Sequence record: PP886230
From: Escherichia phage vB_EcoM_E9.1
Strand: one strand, 5' to 3'
DNA length: 64,000 bases
The notes under the pieces are model-generated. The model ran no database searches. It was not told the origin of the DNA and saw nothing but the letters and a program-made list of their open reading frames with translations. Position numbers and translations under genes: made by a program. Within the stretch, counting starts at the first letter, position 1, and each line of letters opens with the position of its first letter. Positions 46,989 to 57,303 of this stretch are shown here, one piece after another.

Positions 46989-47237
46989 GCAGTTTACAAA
47001 TCTTTACAATTGCCGGTATTGACTTATTTTGTCAGTACTGGCATAATGTATTCATTGGCAGATAAGCCGTAGCCCATAGGGTGCGGGAGTGTATCTATAG
47101 AAAAATTAGTTTAGTATAGTTACAATTGTGCACCCGGTGGGTTAGCTGTTGTCATGGGGTATATTATGCCAGTACTTGATAATGCTGTCAATACTTTTTT
47201 TTACTATCCAGTACAGAAAACTATTTTTAAAAAGTAC

Positions 47238-48595: not shown

Positions 48596-48763
48596 CAACG
48601 CGGGGAGATAATAACTCCCCGTTACTTTTTCAGTACTGAATCATTTAATAGACGGATCTCGGCACCCGGTGGGTTAGTGACTGTTTCGTCTTGATGTAGT
48701 AATTATGCCAGTACTGGATGCACTTGTCAACAACTATTTTTCAAATACTTTTTATTAAAATAC

Positions 48764-53226: not shown

Positions 53227-53230
53227 AAAA

Positions 53231-53264
53231 GTGGTTGACTTCGGTCAGCCATTTTGCTATTATA
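53231..53264 (+). terminator. terminator/promoter hybrid element (second-half variant)
   Basis: TGGTTGACttcgGTCAGCCAtttt GC TATTAT. Confidence 0.55.
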
Positions 53265-54905: not shown

Positions 54906-55236
54906 ACTATTGACAATATCATCCAGCACTGGCATAATACTTACACCAAGACGAGAACGTCACTAACCCATAGGGTGCACAAATGTAACTGTATAATATT
55001 GATCAAAAAATGATCTGATCAATACTTGATCAATTTGCGTAAAGTAGTATAATTCTATGCAGTTGGTTAGACGAAAGGTTATGATTAGTAGTGCAAGTGT
55101 ATAAAAATTTTCATGGTGTATCGTTCCGCACATATGGGGATGAATATGTGGTATCATGTGGATTGGAAAAAGTAAGAACAAGTAATATTATTGTCGCATT
55201 ACAGTACTATAGTATTTTTATAATGAGGTTAAAATA

Positions 55237-55494
55237 ATGGCTGTAGGATTCGCGAAAGATGGGGCCGAGCAAGACGAGATTAACGCAGTGATTCAGGCCG
55301 CCGTTAACCACGCTAGAAAGCAAATTAACGCACAAATAGAATCACTGATACATTGCCTCGACTGCGGCGATATAATCCCTGAGAAACGACGCCAGGCCGT
55401 TAAGGGATGTAAGTACTGCATAACTTGCCAGGAGGATCATGATAGTACTTTTAAACGTCCCCCGCGTAATTGTTGGCATAGATCTATGAGATAA
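55237..55494 (+). CDS. TraR/DksA-family C4 zinc-finger protein
   Basis: CLDCGDIIPEKRRQAV..CKYCITCQE matches the TraR C-x2-C-x17-C-x2-C finger and basic PE.RR motif. Confidence 0.7.
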   Translation: MAVGFAKDGAEQDEINAVIQAAVNHARKQINAQIESLIHCLDCGDIIPEKRRQAVKGCKYCITCQEDHDSTFKRPPRNCWHRSMR

Positions 55495-55500
55495 AAAGTA

Positions 55501-55528
55501 TTGACAGTACTGAAAGATAGTGTATAAT
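55501..55528 (+). promoter_or_regulatory. sigma70-type promoter upstream of GNAT-like gene
   Basis: TTGACA - 16 nt - TG-TATAAT. Confidence 0.55.
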
Positions 55529-55557: not shown

Positions 55558-55914
55558 ATGGGAATACAACATATCACGCGTACTACTGACAATGGCGAGA
55601 TCACTGGCTATCAAGTACAGGGCAAAGTAGCACAATTGCAGTACTGGTTTGTGAAACGTGGAATCATTGCACCGGATCTTGATTATGACCGTGTAGCGTT
55701 TATTGATTCTCTTTATGTTGATCCTGATAGTCGGGGCAATGGTGAAGGTAACGAATTAATGAATGCCTTTATTGATGCCGCCGATGATTCAGATTGTATC
55801 ATTTTAGAATGCGATACGGGAGAAGATAACGCCTTTAATCTTAAAGAATGGTACGAAGGTTTCGGATTCGAGGTACTGATCGATAGTGAATATCCTATCA
55901 TGATTTTATCATAG
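55558..55914 (+). CDS. GNAT-like acetyltransferase domain protein
   Basis: LYVDPDSRGNGEGNELM resembles GNAT motif A (R-G-x-G-x-G); C-terminal YEGFGF. Confidence 0.5.
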   Translation: MGIQHITRTTDNGEITGYQVQGKVAQLQYWFVKRGIIAPDLDYDRVAFIDSLYVDPDSRGNGEGNELMNAFIDAADDSDCIILECDTGEDNAFNLKEWYEGFGFEVLIDSEYPIMILS

Positions 55915-57254: not shown

Positions 57255-57267
57255 AAATATTTGAAAA

Positions 57268-57303
57268 AGGGATTGACTCCGGTCAGTCCCTTTGCTATTA
57301 TAT
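57268..57303 (+). terminator. terminator/promoter hybrid element (second-half variant)
   Basis: GGGATTGACtccgGTCAGTCCCttt GC TATTAT. Confidence 0.55.

Follow-up and report, generated by a model that had tools for sequence, protein, structure and literature searches.

Does the 85-codon open reading frame at positions 55237-55494 of a sequence from Escherichia phage vB_EcoM_E9.1 encode a protein that acts on the RNA polymerase of the host in the manner of TraR, and where does it stand among the relatives of TraR and DksA? The frame was studied within a stretch of 64,000 nucleotides (the window; sequence record PP886230), for which an initial annotation had proposed a TraR/DksA-family zinc finger protein and a plausible modulator of host transcription.

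The zinc-finger gene, its family and its relatives

The reading frame runs from ATG to TAA over exactly 55237-55494 of the + strand, is a real gene, and encodes an 85-residue protein, MAVGFAKDGAEQDEINAVIQAAVNHARKQINAQIESLIHCLDCGDIIPEKRRQAVKGCKYCITCQEDHDSTFKRPPRNCWHRSMR, that is the orthologue of 121Q gp294. The gene and its parts are as follows.

55237..55494, + strand: zinc-finger gene (YbiI-like TraR/DksA family, C4), from the ORF, Pfam, PHROG and PDB matches and AF2/Foldseek
55225..55228, + strand: Shine-Dalgarno sequence GAGG, 8 nt 5' of the ATG, by direct reading
55237..55272, + strand: N-terminal tip, codons 1-12, MAVGFAKDGAEQ, the YbiI-like conserved tip that replaces DxxDxA of TraR
55354..55428, + strand: zinc-finger core C40-C64 including I47-P48-E49-K50-R51-R52, with invariant columns and the equivalents of the TraR rim-helix/beta'-Si3 contacts
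55450..55491, + strand: basic C-terminal tail, codons 72-85, FKRPPRNCWHRSMR, phage-specific and beyond the TraR C-terminus

The Shine-Dalgarno sequence is kept in vB_Ec-M-J and in 121Q. The C-terminal half of the protein carries four cysteines in the arrangement C40-x2-C43-x17-C61-x2-C64 (CxxC-x17-CxxC), and the basic stretch I47-P48-E49-K50-R51-R52 lies between the two pairs. The reading frames of the opposite strand over 55237-55494 gave no phage-family match in PHROG, and a search of the zinc-finger gene and its two neighbours with the PADLOC defence-system models likewise gave no match.

Residues 39-68 match the Pfam family PF01258 (zf-dskA_traR) with 41.2 bits and E = 1.6e-10, exceeding the gathering score of 24.9 bits, and residues 12-76 match PHROG 54, 'DksA-like zinc-finger protein', at 1.1e-18; both matches are far beyond chance. 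The initial annotation had recognised a TraR-type C4 finger and basic motif in the C-terminal half and had named an HMM search with zf-dskA_traR as its check, with the lack of a significant match as the result that would speak against it. The Pfam score and an ungapped alignment with TraR bear it out, and membership of the zinc-finger protein in the TraR/DksA family is confirmed.

The position within the family was determined with narrower models. The top-ranked NCBIfam model was the YbiI-type NF008243 (PRK11019, an equivalog), at 81.4 bits and under its curated cut-off of 96, followed by the TraR-family subfamily model TIGR02419 at 52.5 bits against a cut-off of 59.7. Scores also fell below the cut-off for NF010268, the equivalog for the conjugal transfer protein TraR (30.1 bits against 108), and for NF033459, the model for DksA (13.9 bits against 105). 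In a sequence search of the PDB, E. coli YbiI (2KGO) came first, with an E-value of 2e-12 over residues 1-74, and TraR in the RNA-polymerase complexes 5W1S and 6N57 came next, with an E-value of 1.2e-5 over residues 18-71 in the ungapped alignment mentioned above. The precise placement is therefore in the YbiI-like branch of the TraR/DksA family rather than with TraR proper, and of the likeness to F-plasmid TraR first proposed the family stands, while the nearest relative is the YbiI subfamily. Orthologues in public records of the same phage genus, Asteriusvirus, already carry the annotation, under the labels 'DksA-like zinc-finger protein', 'C-4 type zinc finger protein' (121Q gp294) and 'TraR/DksA C4-type zinc finger protein'. 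The annotation as such is correct, routine and already public, and its novelty is low.

A search of 5.8 billion proteins returned two groups of homologues. The first, with 62-99% identity, lies on phage contigs of ~170 kb and ~350 kb and includes proteins of Citrobacter phage Moon, Yersinia phages MHG19 and fHe-Yen9-01 and Escherichia phage vB_EcoM_RZ; the second consists of bacterial YbiI proteins of 88 residues with 42-52% identity. By tblastn against 50,697 phage records a relative was found in 974, and in ~160 of these the identity was at least 60%; these belong to Asteriusvirus and to Tevenvirinae genera (Gaprivervirus, Dhakavirus, Kanagawavirus and others). In the Tevenvirinae the gene either belongs to a group of small early genes close to tk, rI and mobD, or adjoins the primase gene and is preceded by an annotated consensus promoter. 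When 1.84 billion cluster representatives were searched with a profile, 2,574 clusters matched at E <= 1e-3, with the clade that bears the phage tail forming one single cluster at 50% identity. The alignments indicate that the zinc-finger protein is under strong purifying selection across the jumbo and T4-like virulent phages. For virulent-phage members, the literature searched yielded neither expression nor binding data.

A second PHROG family, phrog_25948, matches residues 59-85, and was considered as a separate tail module. This was rejected, since the match arises from a chimeric remnant in Mosigvirus TH58 that holds the last 27 residues of the zinc-finger protein. In that phage (MT446423.1, L004 2390-2581), an ORF of 54-63 residues ends in these 27 residues (IYCVGCQSMHDEIFKREPRNCWHRSMR), and its N-terminus is unrelated to the zinc-finger protein and resembles the start of the next gene downstream. 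This ORF is a recombination remnant that has neither the N-terminal helix nor the first CxxC.

Position in the terminal repeat and the predicted transcription unit

The region of the gene is 99% identical to the Asteriusvirus jumbo coliphages BAU.Micro_ELP-22, SP27 and CRJP21 and 87-90% identical to 121Q and fEgEco12, and the source phage is an Asteriusvirus jumbo coliphage of the 121Q/SP27 group. For vB_Ec-M-J a direct terminal repeat of 21.5 kb is annotated, with which positions 43908-64000 of the window are collinear, and homology to that repeat stops exactly at the last base of the window, which is the end of the repeat. The second copy of the gene in BAU.Micro_ELP-22 lies 8.4 kb from the right terminus, and 8.5 kb separate the end of the gene from the last base of the window. 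On both grounds the end of the window is most likely the right end (physical terminus) of the linear genome, and the zinc-finger gene is most likely present twice per packaged genome, ~11 kb into a direct terminal repeat of ~20 kb. For fEgEco12, the passages of the genome paper drawn on here describe verification of a ~21 kb terminal repeat by restriction digests, report a phage sigma factor and mention no phage RNA polymerase (PMC13070987). The phage appears to depend on the RNA polymerase of the host.

The terminal repeat is a run of short ORFs on the + strand, most of them with a promoter of their own. A scan that required at least 11 of 12 matches to TTGACA-N16-18-TATAAT found 41 near-consensus sigma-70 promoters in the window, 35 of them on the + strand, and their discriminators are AT-rich (mean GC 0.29). 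The reliance on host sigma70-type promoters that had been suggested for this phage fits such a dense array of consensus promoters and the passages cited above, with their phage sigma factor and no mention of a phage RNA polymerase. Many intergenic segments of 60-200 nt within 43908-64000 are repeated copies of promoter-bearing spacers.

In the consensus scan no promoter was found directly 5' of the zinc-finger gene. Upstream of it lie the following features.

55091..55237, + strand: 48-aa ORF with a GTG start, orthologue of 121Q gp293 (phrog_38664, 7e-36)
55026..55053, + strand: nearest upstream sigma-70-like promoter, TTGATC-16-TATAAT, 10 of 12 in the consensus scan
54910..54938, + strand: second upstream promoter, TTGACA-17-CATAAT with TG, 11 of 12 in the consensus scan

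The stop codon of the 48-aa ORF overlaps the ATG of the zinc-finger gene (TAATG), to which it is translationally coupled, and its GTG start is replaced by TTG in relatives. Compared with 121Q it carries 10, 7 and 20 substitutions at the first, second and third codon positions, respectively, a third-position bias which suggests that it is coding, and its last ~50 nt are identical at the DNA level in three phages. It is the probable first cistron of the zinc-finger transcript, and the predicted promoter at 55026-55053 likely drives the two genes as a unit.

The ~50 nt that follow the promoter at 54910-54938 form a non-coding 5' segment that is nearly identical in relatives. A known RNA family in this leader was considered and rejected: Rfam returned no known RNA family for the promoter/leader region of 290 nt, and the fold z-score of the region was only -2.1. 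The same promoter with its conserved 5' transcript segment is a repeated element, found at 54910-54998 (+), 48600-48745 (-) and 47060-47205 (-). Within it, CAAGACGAnAAnGTCACTAACCCA occurs at 54947 (+) and 48693 (-) where 0 occurrences are expected by chance, and the third copy is weaker. Two small hairpins lie in the segment, and a terminator-like GGGGAG..CTCCCC stem closes the copy at 48.7 kb. Rfam returned nothing for the repeated element; its copies may be a small-RNA family of the terminal repeat.

Some further arrangements were observed in the vicinity of the gene. Positions 54998-55034 form a 37-bp near-palindrome (ATTGATCAAAAAATGATC t GATCAATACTTGATCAAT) with 18-nt arms that are 83% complementary and with four GATC sites. 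The near-palindrome shares bases with the -35 hexamer of the 55026 promoter. Nowhere else in the 64 kb window do three or more GATC sites lie within 50 bp, and overall GATC is rarer there than expected (137 observed, 211 expected); in relatives five GATCAA copies are kept at shifted positions. An operator or a Dam/SeqA-sensitive element for the zinc-finger operon is a possible role. On the + strand at 53228-53255 and 57266-57293, there are two copies of a hairpin with a 12-bp stem, AAAGnGnTTGACTyCGGTCAGyCnnTTT, each followed by GCTATTATAT. In both copies the stem includes a -35-like TTGACT, with a TG-extended TATTAT -10 downstream, so that a terminator-like structure and a promoter are superimposed. 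On the other side of the zinc-finger gene, a perfect consensus promoter at 55501-55528, seven bases past the stop codon, precedes a GNAT acetyltransferase gene (118 aa; Pfam Acetyltransf_1, 4e-9) located directly downstream at 55558-55914 (+). The pairing of the two genes is kept across Asteriusvirus records and is not found in T4-like phages.

Conserved residues, predicted fold and the two termini

An alignment of 58 homologues shows C40, C43, I47, R51, R52, G57, C61 and C64 of the core and M1, A2 and G4 of the tip to be invariant, with P48 and E49 as well as K7, D8, G9, A10 and Q12 at least 90% conserved. The cysteines C40/C43/C61/C64 align with C37/C40/C58/C61 of TraR, and I47-P48-E49-K50-R51-R52 align without gaps to I44-P45-E46-A47-R48-R49, so that the equivalents of TraR I44, P45, E46, R48, R49 and G54 are invariant or nearly so. 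In TraR, P45, E46, R48 and R49 contact the beta' rim helices and beta'-Si3, and their roles have been established experimentally (PMC9239242, PMC6970531). All four are present in the globular domain of the zinc-finger protein, as P48, E49, R51 and R52. Apart from the cysteines, no part of the protein is better conserved than these equivalents of the polymerase-contacting residues of TraR.

The AF2 model computed from the 58-sequence alignment features predicted helices at residues 8-32, 49-54 and 62-71 together with the zinc domain. Its confidence is moderate (pLDDT 73) and is low for residues 1-7 and 72-85, so that the tip and the tail are modelled as disordered. The model has the long N-terminal helix, the zinc-containing globular domain and the C-terminal helix of a TraR-type protein of ~73 residues, and the length of 85 residues is accounted for by the extensions at the tip and tail. 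When the model was compared with the PDB by Foldseek, YbiI ranked first, followed by RNA-polymerase-bound TraR (6N57_M; TM 0.66, rmsd 3.2 Å over 67 columns) and by 5W1S (TraR), and then by RNA-polymerase-bound DksA (7KHI); 5VSW was also among the matches. In functional TraR homologues the C-terminal helix contacts beta-lobe Si1 (PMC9239242, PMC6970531). The predicted helix 62-71 is placed as in TraR, and its sequence is not conserved with TraR.

The N-terminal tip was aligned with TraR, lambda Orf73 and VP882 Orf61, the latter two translated from their records. In the ungapped alignment the zinc-finger protein has three additional N-terminal residues relative to TraR, and the positions of TraR D3, D6 and A8 hold A6, G9 and E11, with the single aspartate, D8, adjoining the position of D6. 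The DxxDxA tip by which functional TraR homologues are recognised (PMC9239242) is accordingly not found. What stands there is a motif of the YbiI-like subfamily as a whole, MAxG[FWY]AKDGAxQ, which the tip matches. Among the 150 best family representatives, MAxG[FWY] occurs in 126 and any DxxDxA within the first 60 residues in four. The N-terminal signature MAxG[FWY]-x-x-D-G-A-x-Q was derived in the present analysis and has no published definition.

At the other end of the protein, the phage clade has the tail FKRxPRNCWHRSMR, which reaches about ten residues past the C-terminus of TraR. The bacterial members end in [YF]NRRGSKDSQLR, a signature likewise derived in the present analysis, and in the zinc-finger protein PRNCWHRSMR stands in its place. 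This segment is identical in Asteriusvirus and in T4-like phages whose proteins are otherwise 62-74% identical. The codons of the tip differ synonymously between phages, as do those of the tail, with the exchanges over the two segments comprising Ser TCT/AGC, Arg AGA/AGG, Pro CCG/CCA/CCC, Cys TGT/TGC and His CAT/CAC, and these silent differences locate the constraint in the protein. An origin of the phage tail as a frameshifted bacterial YbiI tail was rejected, as the three-frame translations are unrelated. The metagenomic member P0136 ends in NRKVWHRSMR, intermediate between the bacterial and the phage tails, and the lytic T4-like Klebsiella phage KP27 (L011 1501-1761) encodes a YbiI-like protein with a tail of the bacterial type (AGYNRRGSKDSQLR). 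As read from these comparisons the phage tail is a diverged YbiI tail, the intermediates pointing to ordinary divergence.

Candidate action on host RNA polymerase and comparison with known systems

We consider it fairly probable, by analogy with the characterised homologues, that the zinc-finger protein acts on host RNA polymerase by a TraR-like mechanism. The protein probably binds the polymerase; that it does so in the secondary channel, the direction of its effect on transcription and its early timing are plausible. In the scheme we propose, host sigma-70 RNA polymerase would transcribe the gene early, from consensus promoters in the ~20 kb terminal repeat, as the second cistron behind the 48-aa ORF. 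The protein would then dock on host RNA polymerase at the secondary channel as TraR does, with its N-terminal helix of ~25 residues extending down the channel toward the active site. The kinetics of initiation would shift, host promoters with short-lived open complexes (rRNA, ribosomal protein) would be placed at a disadvantage, and the phage consensus promoters with their AT-rich discriminators would keep firing. The tip MAVGFAKDG, with its one aspartate, is unlike DxxDxA of TraR, and for this reason the potency or the outcome may differ from that of TraR.

This reading is supported by the family, the fold, the contact residues, the purifying selection and the context of terminal repeat and promoters, and in addition by tested homologues and by YbiI itself. 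Five phage homologues of TraR have been tested, all of which bound RNA polymerase and inhibited rRNA promoters, and two of the five, with incomplete DxxDxA, were still active although weaker (PMC9239242). YbiI at high expression was reported, as data not shown, to rescue the auxotrophy of a dksA-null strain (PMC2613031). Counted against it are the incomplete DxxDxA with a single aspartate, the scores under the TraR and YbiI equivalog cut-offs, the pLDDT of 73, and the fact that this 'data not shown' remark is the only functional evidence for YbiI. DxxDxA is needed for the activity of TraR, lambda Orf73 and VP882 TraR, and an NxxNxA variant of VP882 TraR lost growth suppression and was inactive (bioRxiv 10.64898/2026.07.27.740977), which also counts against it.

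VP882 TraR acts in complex with QisA, the product of the co-transcribed gene immediately upstream (bioRxiv 10.64898/2026.07.27.740977). By analogy, the 48-aa protein may be a partner of the zinc-finger protein, which we regard as a lead and not as a finding. The 48-aa ORF is absent 5' of the orthologues in SE_PL and in T4-like phages, and any such partnership would therefore be specific to the genus.

An unlikely alternative is that the protein does bind in the secondary channel with an outcome other than that of TraR, either as a competitive antagonist of DksA/ppGpp and the Gre factors, for instance blocking the host stringent response during infection, or as a plug of the active site, in which the Gly-rich tip, longer by three residues, would inhibit non-specifically. 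The docking residues are conserved and the tip is different yet itself strongly conserved, the ungapped alignment leaves three more residues at the N-terminus, and proteins of the secondary channel such as Rnk are known that bind and only compete (PMC9239242), all of which would suit such an outcome. Against it, the reported replacement of DksA by YbiI in vivo (PMC2613031) is DksA-like rather than anti-DksA, and the homologues with imperfect DxxDxA still inhibited rRNA promoters (PMC9239242).

Somewhat less probable again is an activity away from RNA polymerase, with the protein either taking over the role of YbiI in bacteria or binding nucleic acid or a host protein through its zinc finger and basic tail. 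YbiI is uncharacterised and rpoS-dependent and lies in an iron-related locus, and the authors who reported the rescue favoured a role in iron metabolism (PMC2613031), a link suggested because of the neighbouring genes. Some C4 zinc-finger proteins of the family are inactive as DksA or TraR when DxxDxA and the C-terminal helix are missing (PMC9239242), and the strongly conserved tail, rich in Arg, Trp and His, has no counterpart in TraR. Against this, the TraR contacts to RNA polymerase are the best conserved part of the protein outside the cysteines, the predicted fold as a whole matches RNA-polymerase-bound TraR, and the C-terminal helix is present in the AF2 model.

A broader proposal, and one we hold to be similarly improbable, is that the clade defined by the tip MAVGFAKDGAEQ and the tail PRNCWHRSMR is a distinct class of secondary-channel effectors of virulent phages, covering the Asteriusvirus jumbo phages and several Tevenvirinae genera. 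If this were true, the Gly-rich aromatic tip and the basic tail would make contacts that TraR does not, the outcome would be unlike TraR/DksA mimicry (for example a plug of the active site or antagonism of the DksA/ppGpp response), the 48-aa upstream protein could be a partner comparable to QisA of VP882, and the YbiI subfamily, widespread in bacteria, would gain its first function. Experiments might be worthwhile only on the tip and the tail of the phage clade.

The composition of the gene bears on its origin. Its GC content is 46.9%, against a window mean of 36.4% (sd 4.8), which ranks it 2nd of 142 ORFs, and its GC3 is 45%. The GC content expected from its amino-acid composition with phage codon preferences is 42.7%, so that most of the excess is due to amino-acid composition; T4-like orthologues fall in the same range, 43-47%. 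The log-likelihood ratio of E. coli versus phage synonymous preference, calculated with the Kazusa K-12 table as the E. coli reference, is -0.069 per codon, on the phage side. Of the codons that E. coli seldom uses, ATA occurs four times in the gene and AGA three times. Codon usage had been described as more host-like than that of neighbouring genes, a claim that fell, as the codon-preference z-score is +1.06, the rank is 23 of 134 and several neighbours score higher; as a distinguishing feature it was rejected. A blastn search ('distant' setting) of 5,426 E. coli genomes gave no DNA match to ybiI, and the best match, just 70% over 88 nt, was to prophage TraR/DksA genes, on which ground a recent capture from the host was rejected. 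The notion of a moron, a recently captured host gene with host-like codons and no adapted role in infection, could draw on 46.9% GC in a 36% GC window and on an enterobacterial YbiI as nearest cellular relative, but it is effectively refuted by the absence of DNA-level similarity to E. coli ybiI, the codon preference, the identity of only 42-52% to bacterial YbiI, and a phage clade conserved with its own invariant tail across two very different virulent groups.

If the TraR-like action on host RNA polymerase that we favour is true, then reprogramming of the host enzyme via the secondary channel without ppGpp, the strategy of TraR that has so far been shown only for a plasmid and temperate phages, would extend to strictly virulent jumbo and T4-like phages. 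It would also open a route to the role of YbiI, which is conserved in enterobacteria and whose structure has been solved.

Of the known systems, YbiI (NF008243/PRK11019; NMR structure 2KGO) is the best match both by sequence and by Foldseek, and alignments with E. coli YbiI and other bacterial members give 38-52% identity. The two have in common MAxG[FW]AxDGAxQ, the C4 finger, I-P-E-x-R-R and a basic tail ending in [LM]R. They differ in that the phage protein, at 81.4 bits, falls short of the curated cut-off of 96 and has the tail FKRxPRNCWHRSMR where YbiI has GYNRRGSKDSQLR, and in that ybiI is a chromosomal, rpoS-dependent and uncharacterised gene whereas the zinc-finger gene belongs to the early region of virulent phages.

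DksA shares the Pfam zinc-finger domain, and the structural matches 7KHI and 5VSW show its mode of binding in the secondary channel. It is a protein of ~150 residues that has a two-helix coiled coil and needs ppGpp, whereas the phage protein has 85 residues and a single N-terminal helix.

TraR, lambda Orf73, P2 Orf82, VP882 Orf61/TraR and VHML Orf8 have the same three-part architecture as that predicted for the phage protein. TraR P45, E46, R48 and R49 are conserved in it, and its AF2 model superimposes on RNA-polymerase-bound TraR with a TM of 0.66. Like TraR and its tested homologues, it is encoded on a mobile element among early or regulatory genes. Unlike TraR it lacks the DxxDxA tip and is longer, by three residues at the N-terminus and by about ten at the C-terminus, and its identity across TraR, lambda Orf73 and VP882 Orf61 is 27-36%. 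The members that have been tested are encoded by temperate phages and a plasmid, whereas the zinc-finger protein is found in strictly virulent jumbo and T4-like phages.
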